Of a stretch of DNA of 64,000 nucleotides, positions 11,340 to 64,000 are shown one piece after another. Location of the stretch: assembly GCA_018714345.1 (NCBI GenBank), contig DVNO01000036.1, positions 240 through 64,239 of the forward strand, written 5' to 3'. The notes under the pieces are model-generated. The model did not search any database, was not told the DNA's origin, and was given only the letters and a program-made list of their open reading frames with translations. The translations under genes and the position numbers were made by a program. Within the stretch, counting starts at the first letter, position 1. Every line of letters starts with the position of its first letter. The DNA is from Candidatus Enterousia avicola (lineage in GTDB: Bacteria; Pseudomonadota; Alphaproteobacteria; Rs-D84).

Positions 11340-13277
11340 TTATGCAATATTTTCTTTTTCCACTGTACCGCGCCGCCTAATCTTAAAAGCCTTGCTTTTT
11401 CCATTGACACGTTTAGCCGCCTCAACAAAATTTTGCCCTTTCTGGCGAAGCAATTTGTTGACACGTTTTATATCTTTTTTTACCCCTATATTCCCGTTAC
11501 GCACAGATAGCTTATAGTTCTTCAAAGCACGTTCTAGATCGCCAATTTGTTCGTACGCAAATCCAGCATTATACTGAGCCGCGGCATATTGACTTTTATC
11601 TCCTATTCTAGTCAAAATTTCGCGCGCACATTTTATTGCTTTTTCATACAATCCAAGATTGTTGTATGTGGCGGCTAAATCATTATGTAACAACGCATTA
11701 TCCGGGAAGCTTTTTAACATATTTTCCAACTGAGCCGCTGCACTTTTATAATCTTTTTTAGAATATGCCAGCATAGCATTTTCATATAAATCATCATATC
11801 CTATGGTATAAGTTTTCACAGTAGATATTTTTTCAGTTTTTGCATAATAATCTACAAAATCATTATTACCTAGTACACATTTACCACTTTGGCAAAGCAA
11901 TAAAGCATCGTCCGGTAAATAATCAGAAACCTTTTTCCAATTTTTTAGACTTTTCCCTTTCTTGTCCCTTGGATTTTTTAACCATTCCTTAAATACCTTG
12001 TACGTTTTTTTATTAACACGTGGTCCCGAAACATCACTTTCAAAAAAAGCACTTTTTTCTTTTCCCATAAGAGAAAAAAATTCATACATACCATTTATAG
12101 GACAATTTAATAACATTTGTGGTGTTATATCTCCCGTCATCAACCCAGCTTCTAACCAGCGCCGCCAATACATTCCCTTTCCTCCGGCCAAAAAACCACC
12201 CAATTTATTAGCGACCTCATTTTTATCGGAACCACTAAGCCAAGCTTCTCCGAAACTTCTTGGTTTTCGTACAGGATAAACATCAAAACACTGTTTCACT
12301 AAAGAATCTGGAAGTGCATAACCGTACTCCTTATAAAGCTTACGTAATTTATCAAATCTATTTTTATGATTAGAGTCTTTCGGGGCTTCTATCAATTTAG
12401 AATATGCATTATATACAACAGACCCTATACCCAAGGCTTCGCTAGTTGTTTCTATGTGAACATTATCTTGAGACACATCATAACAATAAAGAACAAAAAA
12501 TGTTTCATTTTCTAAATGCCAACGCGCAAGCTCATATGCCTCTTCATCTGTTATTGGTGGTGTACTCATAGTAACTTTTGTACCATCTTTCAAAACAGTT
12601 GAACCAAAGCCTATTGTTGGAATTCCCTTTGAGTCACGATATGGAGTATGCATGCCGTTTTCATTAATGTGTACCCCCTCTTTTACTATTAAATCGGCTA
12701 TCAAAACAGGTGTTATAGGTTTTATTCTTTCTAAGAATGCTTTATAAGTACCACTAAATGCTTTTTTTTCTTCGCTGTCCAGTTTCCATTCTTTATAATC
12801 ATGCTCTATTTCTTGTTCATATTTAGCAGTTACATAGCCAGCCCCAGATACAGCAGTTAAACCCAATAACCACAAAATATGAGCAGATAAATTAGGATAC
12901 TTTTTTGCAAACGAAGATACTTTTTTGGGTTTACCTTTTTTGTTTTTACCAACAGTCATATCAGAAAAATTTTTTTCCATTTTACGCAGGAAAGCATTAT
13001 CCATAGTCAACCAACGCGCTAAAGTTAATAAAAACTGTGCACCACCAGCAGCCAACCACGCAGACCACTTAACTGCCCCCAAACCAAAAATACCGGCAGC
13101 GTCCATAAACTTTGCATTTTTATCTTTTATCCCAGCGGATTCTCTCTTTTGCCGTCTTTCTTTTATAGTTTTTACGACTTCCTTTTTCTCTATAAATTTA
13201 CGTAATTTTTTTGCAAGCTCTTCGGGAACAGCAACATTCTTTCTAAACTTTTCTGACATAGTAATTTGCTCCTTCAC
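11340..13277 (-). CDS. membrane-anchored GH24 (phage-type) lysozyme-domain protein with C-terminal TPR repeats
   Basis: Two hydrophobic segments near the N-terminus. The GH24 signature KEGVHINENGMHTPYRDSKGIPTIGFGST matches (EG...Y.D..G.pTIGxG). TPR-like repeats sit at the C-terminus (YNNLGLYEKAIKCAREIL..., AQYNAGFAYEQIGDLERALKNY). Confidence 0.7.
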   Translation of the reverse strand: MKEQITMSEKFRKNVAVPEELAKKLRKFIEKKEVVKTIKERRQKRESAGIKDKNAKFMDAAGIFGLGAVKWSAWLAAGGAQFLLTLARWLTMDNAFLRKMEKNFSDMTVGKNKKGKPKKVSSFAKKYPNLSAHILWLLGLTAVSGAGYVTAKYEQEIEHDYKEWKLDSEEKKAFSGTYKAFLERIKPITPVLIADLIVKEGVHINENGMHTPYRDSKGIPTIGFGSTVLKDGTKVTMSTPPITDEEAYELARWHLENETFFVLYCYDVSQDNVHIETTSEALGIGSVVYNAYSKLIEAPKDSNHKNRFDKLRKLYKEYGYALPDSLVKQCFDVYPVRKPRSFGEAWLSGSDKNEVANKLGGFLAGGKGMYWRRWLEAGLMTGDITPQMLLNCPINGMYEFFSLMGKEKSAFFESDVSGPRVNKKTYKVFKEWLKNPRDKKGKSLKNWKKVSDYLPDDALLLCQSGKCVLGNNDFVDYYAKTEKISTVKTYTIGYDDLYENAMLAYSKKDYKSAAAQLENMLKSFPDNALLHNDLAATYNNLGLYEKAIKCAREILTRIGDKSQYAAAQYNAGFAYEQIGDLERALKNYKLSVRNGNIGVKKDIKRVNKLLRQKGQNFVEAAKRVNGKSKAFKIRRRGTVEKENIA

Positions 13278-60400: not shown

Positions 60401-60949
60401 CTGTGGAATATCACTTTTATTGACTACCTCAATACCTGTTTCAAAAGTGTCTATGAACTGCCAATTTCCGCCATCCAGGACAAAATGGAAACATTGGCAA
60501 TTCTTTATGTTACCAATCTTTGCACCCGCCGCATAACATAATGCACGTGTCACACCACCATGTGAAGATATTGCAACGTCTTTATAACCAGATTGAGATA
60601 CAATTCTATCCAAACATTCCTTAATACGGTTAAAATTGTCATCTACCCTCTGCTGTACCTCTGGTCTATCGTTATACCAGAAACCAAACGCTGCCTCTAT
60701 CAGGTTATCATCAGTGATAATTTTAATTCCTGGATGACGTTCCGCAACAATTTCCGCCGTATGAACAGCACGCTTTAACGGGGAAGAATAAATCACATCA
60801 AGGTTCTTATCCGACAAATATTCTGCCAATCGTTTTGCCTGCCTAATTCCAGCATCAGTCAAAAAAGATTCTGGATGCGGCACTTCTTTAGCACCAGCAA
60901 CATTTTCATTCGTTTGTCCATGCCGAAAGAAATAAAAATTCCGTTTCAT
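60395..60949 (-). CDS. histidine phosphatase family protein (PGAM-like)
   Basis: RHG motif FYFFRHGQT. Its start overlaps the upstream lipoprotein stop (TAATG). Confidence 0.8.
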   Translation of the reverse strand: MKRNFYFFRHGQTNENVAGAKEVPHPESFLTDAGIRQAKRLAEYLSDKNLDVIYSSPLKRAVHTAEIVAERHPGIKIITDDNLIEAAFGFWYNDRPEVQQRVDDNFNRIKECLDRIVSQSGYKDVAISSHGGVTRALCYAAGAKIGNIKNCQCFHFVLDGGNWQFIDTFETGIEVVNKSDIPQE

Positions 60950-61719
60950 TATTTATCTAAGCTCATATCTTTTATAAACTCATTCAAACGTTTTAAAACA
61001 TCACAAGCGTCCTCTTCATAGTCGTACATTATACCGTCATTGCTATAAAATTTCATATCTGAATAATCCCAATATGGACTTACTGAAAAAGCTTCTTCTT
61101 GCGTTAAAACGAAACTTCCTTTAGACGGTATATGAATCAACAACTCATTACATTCATCATTTGCACATAATACTTTCTCATTTATTTCGTTTATACATTT
61201 TTCTGTGGCATTTGGCATTTTATAATTATGATCAAATGGCACATTTACAGAATGACTTTCATCTACATATTCTTCATTAACTGGATAACAAGAATAGCCT
61301 ATCGACATTACATCACCAGTCTTTTCTGATATAAAATTTTCATCATCAAAAGATAAATCATATTGTTTTATCACTCTGTTAGATATATCAGCAAAAATGC
61401 TTATAGTTGCATCCCGATTAGTACCTGGCAAAATACCTTTATAGGTTATATAAACATCTCCGAAAATCCCAGAAAAACGTTCCTCTGACTTTTTCACAAA
61501 ATTTATACTTTCTCCATTTACAGTAACAACGGCATAGTCATCAAAAGTTTTAAGATTTAAAAATAAATCTGTTGTTTTATCTATATCTTGTTCCGATAAA
61601 GTAGCCTCGCTATTTTTTTCCAATCCTGACGACACAAGACAATGTAATTCTGCATCTGAAGTTTTTTTATCACACGCTGCTAGTAATATGATCGGTAGTA
61701 AAAAAAGCAATTTTTTCAT
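60949..61719 (-). CDS. lipoprotein, hypothetical (paralog B)
   Basis: Lipobox LLAACDKK. The C-terminal motif ...DACDVLKRLNEFI is shared with the neighbouring gene. Confidence 0.5.
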   Translation of the reverse strand: MKKLLFLLPIILLAACDKKTSDAELHCLVSSGLEKNSEATLSEQDIDKTTDLFLNLKTFDDYAVVTVNGESINFVKKSEERFSGIFGDVYITYKGILPGTNRDATISIFADISNRVIKQYDLSFDDENFISEKTGDVMSIGYSCYPVNEEYVDESHSVNVPFDHNYKMPNATEKCINEINEKVLCANDECNELLIHIPSKGSFVLTQEEAFSVSPYWDYSDMKFYSNDGIMYDYEEDACDVLKRLNEFIKDMSLDK

Positions 61720-61756
61720 ATTCGTCTCCTCTTTATTATAAATTTTATTAATTACA

Positions 61757-62608
61757 TCATTGACCTATAACTACAACTTCATCATCGTCACATGATATTG
61801 TTACTACTTCTCCAGCTGATATGTATACCGAGTTTTCTGATTCTTTTATATATTCAGAATCTATATGTGTTGCAATATACTCTCGCAAACGATTTGCAAT
61901 TTCACAAGCATGTTTAACATCATCTGGGTAATAGCGTGCATTCAGCAAATAGAAATGATTCAGTTCAATCCCATTAAACATCTCTTTTATCACGCTATTA
62001 CTAATATTCATTTCACGCCCTGTCTTTTCATCGAACACCAGAACACCCTTTTCCCCATCAAATAATAATTGTTCTTCTAAATACTCCAAACAATTCTTAA
62101 CCTCTTTAAGCTGTTCAACAGGAATATCTTTTATCGACACATCAACAGGATATAAAACCGGCTCACAGGTTGTTCCAACCAGATATTCACCATCAGGAAC
62201 GGTTTCACCATCTGCCATTTTTAAATTATTGTCCGTTGCAGGCCATAATGTAAATCTTAATCCACCTGTTAATCCGCTATGATTCAGAACAAACTTAATT
62301 TTACCAGGAATCTCATAAATTCCTTCTTCATTTATAGGCAGCGACACTTCTATCTCATCATCTATTTGGGGGATCTGATTATATAGCCATGTATGATCCG
62401 CCAACCACATATTACTTTGTCCCTTTGCCTTTGCCCGTAATTCTTTTGTTAAACGCTTTATGACTAAATCTGCACGAGTGTCATAAACCTTGGCATCAAC
62501 AATCAACTGGCCCTTAGCTCCGTCTTCACAAACCATTTGCAAATCATACTGAGGGCGGTCACAGGCAGCCAAACCTAATAGGCAAATAAAGAAAAACAAG
62601 CGTTTCAT
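61757..62608 (-). CDS. lipoprotein, hypothetical (paralog A)
   Basis: Lipobox LGLAACDR. C-terminal motif ...HACEIANRLREYI. Confidence 0.5.
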   Translation of the reverse strand: MKRLFFFICLLGLAACDRPQYDLQMVCEDGAKGQLIVDAKVYDTRADLVIKRLTKELRAKAKGQSNMWLADHTWLYNQIPQIDDEIEVSLPINEEGIYEIPGKIKFVLNHSGLTGGLRFTLWPATDNNLKMADGETVPDGEYLVGTTCEPVLYPVDVSIKDIPVEQLKEVKNCLEYLEEQLLFDGEKGVLVFDEKTGREMNISNSVIKEMFNGIELNHFYLLNARYYPDDVKHACEIANRLREYIATHIDSEYIKESENSVYISAGEVVTISCDDDEVVVIGQ

Positions 62609-63119: not shown

Positions 63120-63683
63120 ATGAAAAAGAAAGATATTGAAATTTTAAAAGACGTTTTAAATGCCTTATTGGATAAAAGTCAAGATGTAAAAATAGAAACA
63201 CTTTGGCCAGAGTCAGGGTCTAAAAATCCAAGGATCCCACAAAAAAATTATAGCAAAGGGCCAATATCTACAAACCATATGAATGCAGATAGTGTAACCC
63301 TTGGTTCTGGAACAACAATTAGACGAATAAGGGAAACACCGACAAAACACCCAAAAGGTTATGAAATTGATACTGGGTGGCATTGGATAGTACGAAGCCC
63401 ACATGGTGACGCGTTCTTTACCCAAAGCGATAAAGATCTCCTTCAATTATGGGGTGCAGCACTAAACAAGGCCGATAAACTTTGGGGTAAAAGGACCGAA
63501 GAAGAAATCACAAATATTTTATATGATAATATAGAAAACCAAGAGTTACGCAATATTCTGAAAGAAGGTCCAACAAAAACGGAGCCTAAAAACAAGTATG
63601 AAAAAGCACTTTTAAGCTTAAAAGCACTTGGGGTAACACCAAAAAAATTAGCTGAATATATTGCAAGCAAACAAAACGACTAA
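63120..63683 (+). CDS. hypothetical protein (187 aa)
   Basis: SD AAGGAG 10 nt upstream. No recognisable motif. It sits adjacent to the duplicated tRNA 3'-end repeat. Confidence 0.5.
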   Translation: MKKKDIEILKDVLNALLDKSQDVKIETLWPESGSKNPRIPQKNYSKGPISTNHMNADSVTLGSGTTIRRIRETPTKHPKGYEIDTGWHWIVRSPHGDAFFTQSDKDLLQLWGAALNKADKLWGKRTEEEITNILYDNIENQELRNILKEGPTKTEPKNKYEKALLSLKALGVTPKKLAEYIASKQND

Positions 63684-63686
63684 GAA

Positions 63687-63738
63687 AAAAAACACCGCGC
63701 AAGGCGGTGTTTCTTATTGTGGTGGGAGTGGGTGGATT
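63687..63738. repeat. 52-bp direct repeat, distal copy: terminator hairpin plus the last 19 nt of tRNA-Tyr
   Basis: Identical to 63857..63908 (aaaaaacaccgcgcaaggcggtgtttcttattgtggtgggagtgggtggatt). Confidence 0.85.
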
Positions 63739-63744
63739 GTAATT

Positions 63745-63771
63745 CCCAACGCAACAAAACTTTGCGTTGGG
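63745..63771. other. perfect 10-bp-stem hairpin within the inter-repeat spacer
   Basis: cccaacgcaa-caaaact-ttgcgttggg. Confidence 0.6.
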
Positions 63772-63856
63772 CCCCTTTCACTACGCACTTCGTGCTTGTT
63801 CCGAACCAAACAATCTAACGATTGTATGTCCTAATCCTTGTGCCACATCACACAAT

Positions 63857-63908
63857 AAAAAACACCGCGCAAGGCGGTGTTTCTTATTGTGGTGGGAGTG
63901 GGTGGATT
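63857..63908. repeat. 52-bp direct repeat, proximal copy: overlaps the tRNA-Tyr 3' end and its terminator
   Basis: See the distal copy. The first 33 nt form the ACACCGC-GCAAG-GCGGTGT hairpin and T-run that terminates the tRNA on the minus strand. Confidence 0.85.
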
Positions 63909-63976
63909 CGAACCACCTCAGGCTTAAGCCAACAGATTTACAGTCTGCCCCGGCTCTCCAACTCCGGCGCACGCCC
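63890..63976 (-). tRNA. tRNA-Tyr (anticodon GUA), type II with long variable arm
   Basis: Minus-strand sequence GGGCGTG CG CCGG AGTTGGAGAG CCGG G GCAGA CTGTAAA TCTGT TGGCTTAAGCCTGA GGTGG TTCGAAT CCACC CACTCCC A CCA. The T-loop is TTCGAAT. The anticodon loop has U33, GUA and A37. The D-arm is CCGG/CCGG with GG in the loop. CCA is encoded. Caveats: one C4:U69 acceptor mismatch and a C at position 8. Confidence 0.55.
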
Positions 63977-64000
63977 AATCCCTTGGTGCGGGCAGCGGGA

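Follow-up and report, generated by a model that had tools for sequence, protein, structure and literature searches.

Why should the 3′ end of a tRNA gene, together with the terminator that follows it, stand twice at a single locus? We asked this of a 64,000-nt stretch of DNA from Candidatus Enterousia avicola (contig DVNO01000036.1; hereafter, the window, whose positions serve as coordinates throughout), in which the last 19 nt of a tRNA-Tyr gene and the adjoining terminator hairpin recur as an exact direct repeat. The initial annotation of this DNA had seen in the repeat either the scar of an excised integrative element or a local tandem duplication. The comparison with related loci and metagenome contigs (fetched sequences carry L-numbers) leads us to favor, with moderate confidence, another explanation: the repeat bounds one ~170-bp tRNA-distal unit resembling the RtT repeats of Escherichia coli, most likely one that encodes an RNA mimicking a tRNA end. 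Judged by its sequence, the unit appears to be the local member, assigned here to family A, of a diverse set of structured modules that lie behind tRNA-Tyr in gut "Candidatus Enterousia".

Anatomy of the Repeat

Sequence reading and a repeat search both confirmed the direct repeat reported in the initial annotation. The segments 63687–63738 and 63857–63908 are identical at 52 of 52 nt, with 118 bp between them and a start-to-start distance of 170 bp, one less than the period of 171 bp given earlier. As had also been proposed, each copy consists of the final 19 nt of tRNA-Tyr(GTA) (A58 to A76, CCA included) and a 33-nt 3′ flank, a composition on which ARAGORN, Rfam, and the terminator scan agree. 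The flank holds a G+C-rich hairpin of 9–12 bp and a U-run and is terminator-like in either strand.

The annotation had allowed for a locus at which no tRNA would be called; ARAGORN called an intact tRNA-Tyr(GTA) on the minus strand at 63890–63976 (Rfam tRNA, 38.5 bits, E = 3e-6). It is the final gene of a tRNA-Gly(TCC)/tRNA-Tyr operon, with tRNA-Gly lying upstream in the contigs that extend past the window. Read in tRNA sense, that is, on the minus strand, the order is as follows. Directly 3′ of the tRNA CCA lies terminator T2 (63857–63889, with its hairpin at 63860–63882 followed by the U-run), found by the terminator scan and the repeat; with the tRNA end at 63890–63908, it makes up the second copy of the repeat. 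Then comes a 118-nt, three-hairpin core of family A (core S, 63739–63856), recognized from RNAalifold predictions and cross-species identity. The unit closes with a 19-nt replica of the tRNA-Tyr 3′ end (A58 to A76; 63720–63738), an exact match to 63890–63908, and is followed by terminator T1 (63687–63719, hairpin 63690–63712), which is identical to T2 and was likewise identified from the repeat and the terminator scan. T1 also sits 3 nt past the stop codon of the convergent gene at 63120–63683. The replica breaks between T-loop positions 57 and 58, as does every other exact replica that we fetched, and as does E. coli RtT.

How specific is the repeat to this locus? With up to three mismatches allowed, the 19-mer has two matches in the 64 kb, a number that was reached in none of 100 shuffles. 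The annotation had suggested a search of the genome for other copies of the 52-mer; within the window, the repeat is not dispersed, since the core of the terminator hairpin is confined to two sites. No k-mer in the 64 kb is over-represented in the manner of an uptake-sequence word. A dispersed repeat or an uptake-sequence-like hairpin was ruled out because the 19-mer and the terminator core occur only at the tRNA-Tyr locus in the 64 kb.

The unusual features of the tRNA itself that had been pointed out, a C4:U69 mismatch in the acceptor stem and C8, are real. They are kept in 76 species-level genomes, with an identical 5′ end, and so represent a trait of the clade and not a scar. A Firmicute tRNA-Tyr with the identical 3′ end has A4 and U8.

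The spacer, on the other hand, did not come from the tRNA. Its local alignments with tRNA genes, or with the E. coli unit, were no better than those of shuffled sequences, and a derivation from either was rejected at that level. No further copies of the spacers were found in ~150 kb of same-species DNA.

A Conserved, Structured Element Behind tRNA-Tyr

What, then, occupies the 118 bp? Scanning one genome per species for the 19-mer, with one position left free, led us to uncultured gut Alphaproteobacteria, many of them "Candidatus Enterousia", and we inspected the ~260 nt 3′ of tRNA-Tyr in all fetched loci of this clade. Of the 77 tRNA-Tyr copies of this type that were fetched, 73 have a hairpin terminator, variable in sequence, in the first 36 nt past the CCA; in four loci of the Enterousia clade (L090, L097, L103, and L120), no hairpin was found in those 36 nt. 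Behind this first terminator, 34 of the fetched clade loci, including species without an exact replica, carry units of ~110–200 nt in tRNA sense, most of which close by copying the tRNA-Tyr 3′ end more or less exactly; a further terminator often comes next. A second exact 19-mer stands 163–183 bp downstream in nine species, and in a tenth, the same layout is split over L032 and L034. The replica-side and tRNA-side terminators are unrelated in six of these nine species (L017, L020, L071, L126, L128, and L092), which a simple duplication cannot produce.

The units fall into several families. Family A comprises those of the window, L017, L071, L126, L128, L032 with L034, L106, and L178, and A-like units are found in L069, L027, and L102. 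The others were assigned to families B, C, and E and to a longer family D, whose units begin with GAGUGGGUGGAU or something close to it, a stretch that is complementary to the 3′ end of the tRNA. Intermediates (L069, L092, and L107) bridge the families. Furthermore, GGUU.G is invariant across all aligned units, and the full GGUUCG, invariant in the family-A alignment (63802–63807 in the window, given on the plus strand), is present in all but one.

RNAalifold, applied to 9 and to 12 family-A sequences, predicted three hairpins in tRNA sense, namely H1 (63810–63815 with 63820–63825), H2 (63785–63788 with 63792–63795), and H3 (63745–63754 with 63762–63771), the last being the perfect 10-bp hairpin at 63745–63771 that the initial annotation had noticed. 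It also predicted the pairing of upstream segments with the replica, as GGAUU:AAUCC (GGAUU at 63833–63837) and GUGG:CCAC. In family A, 98.8% of the cells are paired, but compensatory change is seen in just two pairs; the G–U pairs (one invariant, one in four sequences) are compatible only with the tRNA-sense strand. The family-A core is 84–93% identical between species, compared with 67–73% for the adjacent protein-coding DNA.

The 18 units outside family A gave a richer record of compensatory change. In their helices H2 and P3, 92% of the cells are paired, compared with 66% in column shuffles and 19–43% in slid controls, and 13 of the 15 pairs show compensatory double changes; the observed score was reached by none of 500 shuffles. 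With a covariance model built from these units, 25 loci yielded 30 matches at E ≤ 1. Of these matches, 24 are better than E = 1e-5, and in three loci, strong matches stand in tandem, two or three to a locus. The model did not retrieve the unit of the window. Consequently, the homology of family A to the other families rests on the shared motifs and the intermediates.

These results show a unit of recurrent anatomy that is conserved across species, with helices backed by compensatory change. The spacer is a conserved structured element, and in most fetched loci, it is the clade's usual occupant downstream of tRNA-Tyr.

Known RNA families did not account for it. Rfam gave only sub-threshold chance matches at the window locus and for one family-B unit, and at the gathering threshold, five related loci matched only tRNA. 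Transfer-messenger RNA, including its permuted form, was rejected: ARAGORN and Rfam were negative on the window and more than 20 loci, and the acceptor strand is that of tRNA-Tyr. A "tag-like" AAUACG...UAA in longer units was set aside as well, being, by eye, one strand of a hairpin.

A Replica Matched to Its tRNA

Does the replica belong to the core or to the host tRNA? A short-pattern scan of metagenomes returned mostly chance matches, the genuine ones being only L135, L178, and L206. In L206, from a different organism with 45% G+C, a clearly homologous family-A-like core lies behind tRNA-Pro(CGG) (minus strand, ~11850–12120). Among the long blocks that it shares with family A are UGUUUGGUUCGGAACAAGC and GCGCAGUGAAAGGGGCCCGCCGCA..UUGCGGUGGGAAUUAC (given as in L135), the second of which contains a 38-nt insertion in L206. 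The L206 unit ends in AACCCAGUCACUCCGACCA, the final 19 nt of tRNA-Pro itself from A58, and then a terminator. In the aligned sequences, hairpins H1 and H2 of L206 read as altered by compensating changes, and the 5′ segment has become GGGCGGA, which by inspection is complementary to UCCGACC of its replica. In L135 (240–440), the part of the tRNA upstream of ...CCGACCA has given way to unrelated DNA, which may be another insertion.

A different unit, G1, lies between tRNA-Gly and tRNA-Tyr. The initial annotation had suspected that more of the locus lay beyond the window end, and the extended contigs do contain it: a tRNA-Gly(TCC) 3′-end replica, of which 17 bases (63984–64000, minus strand) fall inside the window before its end clips it, the remainder of G1, and tRNA-Gly. 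Most strains have a replica of the last 18–20 nt of tRNA-Gly, then a 96-nt spacer, and then the real tRNA-Gly, so that G1 measures 115 nt as core plus replica (region L003:11028–11224). G1 follows the plan of the Tyr unit with a different core, and its 5′ GGGUGGCG can, by inspection, pair with CGCUGCCC. It is precisely missing in L008, where 7 nt separate the tRNAs, carries a 45-bp deletion in L001, and is 100% identical in two other species (L023 and L128). Taken together, the replica tracks the cognate tRNA: Tyr in the window, Pro in L206, and Gly in the neighboring, different unit.

The spacer between tRNA-Gly and tRNA-Tyr is itself modular (L014, L017, L071, and L073). It is empty (5–7 nt) or holds G1 or one of two other structured modules (~75 and ~108 nt), and the modules occur alone or combined. 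In L007 (10980–11081), tRNA-Gly contains a 26-bp tandem duplication, with CGGGAATCGAACCCGCATTTCAAGCT present twice, which could be an assembly error.

Copy Number and Terminator Exchange among Strains

Could the 52-bp identity have arisen by exchange between the two segments? An exact-protein look-up with the product of 63120–63683 retrieved ten metagenome contigs, L001–L010, that reach past the window end. They were treated as the same species because they encode the identical protein and share the gene neighborhood. The 19-mer occurs in copies 170 bp apart, two in seven contigs and three in L003 and L010; L009 contains none, as this contig ends inside the first repeat. The extra copy in L010 is real, because its three copies can be told apart by single-nucleotide polymorphisms (SNPs) and a 1-nt indel. 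At one SNP in the terminator loop, the T1/T2 pair is G/A in five contigs, G/G in the window, L003, L006, and L007, and A/A in L002, which suggests a two-way exchange, or homogenization, between the terminators.

The number of copies in the array thus varies among strains, a pattern that we would ascribe to unequal crossing-over or gene conversion between the segments formed by the 19 nt and the terminator. The same processes would explain the 52-bp identity. Exact equality of T1 and T2 is uncommon among the relatives (it recurs in L014, L115, and L094), and here, it is best explained by the concerted evolution of both segments, which fits the polymorphism of two versus three copies and the SNP haplotypes.

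Might the unit itself be nothing but a neutral duplication? According to this explanation, slippage or unequal crossing-over duplicated the tRNA 3′ end, terminator, and flank in tandem, in the manner of a variable-number tandem repeat, around a functionless spacer. The 170-bp period, the two or three copies among strains, and SNPs that fit unequal exchange speak for it, as does the similar array at E. coli tyrT. However, neither the tRNA nor its flank is the source of the spacer, which is conserved across species between unrelated terminators, is more conserved than the neighboring coding DNA, and has homologues behind another tRNA. Duplication therefore accounts for how many copies there are and for their identity over 52 bp but leaves the origin of the unit unexplained, and as a full explanation, it is very improbable, being already largely refuted by the cross-species conservation. 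Of the local tandem duplication proposed in the initial annotation, the variation between two and three copies stands, whereas the conserved and structured 118-bp spacer remains unexplained by it.

Still less probable, to the point of being negligible, is an artefact of assembling a repeat from metagenome-derived sequence. Assemblers can miscount identical copies longer than the k-mer, and the exact number is accordingly uncertain in cases such as the three identical copies of L003. On the other hand, the arrangement is present in nine of ten independent same-species assemblies (in the tenth, L009, the contig stops inside the first repeat), and many species-level genomes have the same layout. 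Moreover, the copies differ by a SNP in most contigs, and L010 resolves three distinguishable ones, which argues that the duplication is not an artefact of assembly.

Comparison with the E. coli RtT Repeats

An arrangement of this kind exists in E. coli, where the 178-bp repeats distal to tyrT/tyrV were reportedly described by Egan and Landy in 1978. In the tyrT region of K-12, tyrV is followed by 3.1 repeats of a 178-bp unit, of which another copy, 66% identical, is situated between the two genes. All units close with the last 19 nt of tRNA-Tyr, the break being GGATT|CGAACC in the gene and GGATT|ACTCAG in the repeat. The region is annotated with rttR and tpr, and the Rfam model RtT (RF00391) matches four E. 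coli units at 133–138 bits. In the Rfam consensus, the closing stem pairs GGGGAAGGAU with AUCCUUCCCC of the replica. To our knowledge, it is still not understood what the tyrT-distal repeats and rtT RNA do or how they arose. PMC3318445 places rttR in the tyrT repeat unit and gives Bosl and Kersten (1991) as the source on the tyrT/tyrV distal repeats. Another report (bioRxiv 10.1101/2024.07.17.603846) links rtT RNA to the processing of tyrT and to the stringent response and describes the way in which it acts as unknown.

The architecture is common to the Enterousia units and RtT. Like the unit of the window, RtT lies immediately 3′ of tRNA-Tyr in the same orientation, ends in an exact 19-nt copy of the host tRNA-Tyr with the 57|58 break, and forms a tandem array (a period of 178 bp in E. 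coli and 170 bp in the window, where the copy number is strain-variable). A direct GGUUCGA motif and internal hairpins are present in both, and in both, an upstream segment is predicted to pair with the replica in such a way that the ...CCA tail would be left free. The RtT unit contains the tRNA T-arm/acceptor strand in inverted copy (0 of 1000 shuffles), and the direct AAGGUUCGA comes after it. Such an inverted copy is also significant in family D (1 of 1000), in a Firmicute locus (L099; 6 of 1000), and in family B (34 of 1000).

Two Firmicute metagenome-assembled genomes (MAGs) with the same tRNA-Tyr 3′ end have comparable layouts. In L060 (360–700), the acceptor strand recurs in inverted orientation after the terminator; L099 has, in this order, an inverted T-arm copy, hairpins, the exact 19-mer, and a terminator.

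The two systems also differ. Sequence and covariance-model similarity between RtT and the window unit was undetected in either direction. The window has an intrinsic terminator after both the tRNA and the replica, whereas the E. coli repeats contain a Rho-dependent termination site; it has no conserved tpr-like open reading frame (ORF), and its host is an alphaproteobacterium. A small basic ORF that resembles tpr (63680–63781, minus strand, 33 aa) was considered and rejected, since it crosses T1 and its frame, in our own reading of the sequences, is not conserved in L128. Finally, unlike RtT, the Enterousia family also occurs behind tRNA-Pro, with an analogous unit behind tRNA-Gly.

An RNA situated between terminators has a precedent, by analogy, in the small RNA genes rrA/rrB/rrF, which, according to PMC8144298, lie between the dual terminators of the E. 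coli rrn operons. Unlike the unit of the window, these genes neither replicate the 3′ end of the stable RNA encoded upstream nor vary in tandem copy number.

Integrative Elements at tRNA-Tyr

Do mobile elements use the same site? In L097 (2902–7382), from rumen MAGs, a 4462-bp insert (a 4.46-kb integrative element) lies between an intact tRNA-Tyr and an exact copy of the 19-mer. Adjoining the tRNA, it encodes a 510-aa tyrosine integrase (PF00589, E = 3e-13) and, in addition, a Rep of the filamentous-phage/rolling-circle-replication type (PF23343). L073 has a 1467-bp derivative that lacks the integrase and has the same far end as L097, and related integrases adjoin tRNA-Tyr in L120 and L090. 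The 19 nt thus resemble the core of an attachment site, because they flank an integrase-bearing insert in a relative. Tyrosine integrases of tRNA-integrating islands and prophages are said (Williams, 2002) to cross over in the T-loop or at the 3′ end of the tRNA.

Like the attL/attR ends of such islands, the window has a direct repeat running from the T-loop to CCA, with the intact tRNA and a displaced 3′ fragment at opposite ends. Unlike them, it has just 118 non-coding bp between the repeats and no integrase, its repeat runs 33 bp past the tRNA, and its spacer is a structured module that recurs, conserved, in most of the fetched clade loci. In tblastn searches, neither the integrase nor the Rep of L097 was found in the window or in L001–L010, and the ORFs neighboring the locus in the window had no integrase match in Pfam or PHROG. 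The scar of an excised element, as suggested in the initial annotation, is thus supported by the integrase element at the same 19-mer and by the unrelated terminators but is contradicted by the conserved, covarying spacer and by the lack of an integrase remnant. The comparison of related loci for occupancy of the site, which had been recommended, likewise revealed the L097 insert but not an empty-site pattern, as homologous, covarying units fill the site in most fetched clade loci. Integration and duplication, both of them seen or inferred at this site, are partly supported, and neither explains the 118 bp.

The main rival to the favored explanation is that the unit is a miniature, non-autonomous integrative element or the compacted attL/attR remnant of one. 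A tyrosine integrase would cross over inside the 19 nt and insert DNA at the 3′ end of tRNA-Tyr; the insert would bring a replacement for the 19 nt and the terminator, displacing the old end downstream, the core would serve recombination (as arm sites or as a folded single strand), and successive insertions would lengthen the arrays. Several observations agree with this. In addition to the L097 element, its derivative in L073, and the integrases of L120 and L090, the 19-mers are identical in the six species whose T1 and T2 are unrelated, and the block of T2 plus a core A-prime is constant while T1 is variable. Some loci have tandem arrays with degenerate distal units, the unit size is held to 163–183 bp across families, units are present or absent within a species (with G1 being 100% identical across species), and the same core stands at another tRNA in L206.

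Other observations oppose it. No integrase or fragment of one was found in the window or the ten same-species contigs, and the 118 bp have no coding capacity. No core was found to resemble the L097 element, and four scans of viral contigs for core-like sequence gave nothing or chance matches, on which ground a phage origin of the core was rejected. The equality of T1 and T2 is not predicted by simple integration, and in L178, it is the distal unit that bears the exact replica. The compensatory changes in the hairpins across deep divergence are strand-specific and extensive, which argues for a single-stranded structure and not for duplex arm sites. On balance, we consider this explanation rather unlikely.

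A Candidate tRNA-End Mimic

How might the unit act under the explanation that we favor, a tRNA-distal unit whose RNA mimics a tRNA end? The unit would be transcribed by read-through of T2. Its 5′ part could pair with the replica, so that the RNA would end in a helix resembling the acceptor/T-arm, with a free ...ACCA tail. It would follow from such an end that the RNA may be handled like that of a tRNA, by RNase P, 3′ trimming, and the CCA enzyme, and a synthetase or a sensor of the stringent response might act on it, a handling such as has been proposed for rtT RNA. This function is inferred from the predicted structure and the shared architecture.

Several results weigh against this explanation. 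The closing helix of the window unit is an RNAalifold prediction whose columns are invariant within family A, and the fold of the unit is only modestly better than those of shuffled sequences (z = −1.7). The shuffle test for an inverted tRNA copy was not significant in the window unit. The RtT model had no match at E ≤ 1 in the window segment 62600–64000 or at E ≤ 10 in a family-B unit (L014), and the covariance model of the non-A units does not match E. coli; because neither model crosses between the groups, homology with RtT is unproven. The intrinsic terminator T2 separates the tRNA from the unit, and a scan of the window locus revealed no sigma-70-like promoter for it, so the level of the RNA would depend on read-through. 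Lastly, the patchy distribution of the families, the near-identical copies in divergent species, and the dispensability among strains (G1 is missing in L008) also fit a mobile element.

Neighboring Genes

The convergent gene at 63120–63683 had been described as lacking recognizable homology and as possible residual cargo. It indeed has no Pfam, PHROG, or NCBIfam match, but a 48%-identical homologue exists in L043. The idea of cargo found no support: all ten same-species contigs carry the gene (an exact match to its protein was how they were retrieved), and the homologue in L043 likewise adjoins tRNA-Tyr.

The 3 kb adjoining the tRNA operon are strain-variable. In L009 (10565–12374), a 1.75-kb cassette of three genes, for a metallo-beta-lactamase-fold hydrolase, a cupin, and an HxlR-type regulator, sits between the terminator of the 63120–63683 ORF and a second copy of that terminator. 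As the cassette lies between two copies, the terminator hairpin also acts as a boundary for recombination or indels. Two ORFs at 60949–62608 of the window, of 256 and 283 aa and without a family match, the latter with a lipoprotein-like N-terminus, are missing in L004, L005, L006, L009, and L010. A 383-aa ORF is inserted behind an LppC-like gene in L002, L004, L009, and L010. Outside the window, L001 (18486–20264) encodes a 592-aa product with matches to FtsA/PilM-type proteins and to ribulose-phosphate 3-epimerase, an unusual fusion beside ftsQ.

Significance

What does the locus mean for RtT and for the clade? The design of RtT is seen here in a distant, uncultured gut alphaproteobacterium, at a locus matched by no relative in Rfam. 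The locus is of moderate to high interest, because it provides comparative material for RtT, comprising dozens of diverged relatives, covariation within families, changes in copy number within a population, and the same core at different tRNAs, and because it hints at a broader class of elements that copy tRNA ends. This material permits the building of a structural model, the question of what is selected (the ...CCA tail, the A58 break, or the closing helix), and a test of the RNA-mimic explanation against the mobile element. For annotators, it is a caution against taking every duplicated tRNA 3′ end for the sign of an integrated island.

More tentatively, RtT may not be an enterobacterial oddity but one example of a widespread class: portable, structured modules behind tRNA genes. 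The class would include units at Tyr, Pro, and Gly in Alphaproteobacteria, at Tyr in E. coli, and in the similar layouts of two Firmicute MAGs, and it would be marked by an exact replica of the last 18–19 nt of the host tRNA, from position 58, together with a complementary 5′ segment. This whole reading is a possibility that we hold with less confidence than the interpretation of the window unit itself. If it is true, the modules could constitute non-coding mobile elements of a new type, with recombination specific for the T-loop, or, alternatively, a conserved decoy or sensor RNA of tRNA ends, the replica of which would be kept matched to its tRNA by gene conversion.

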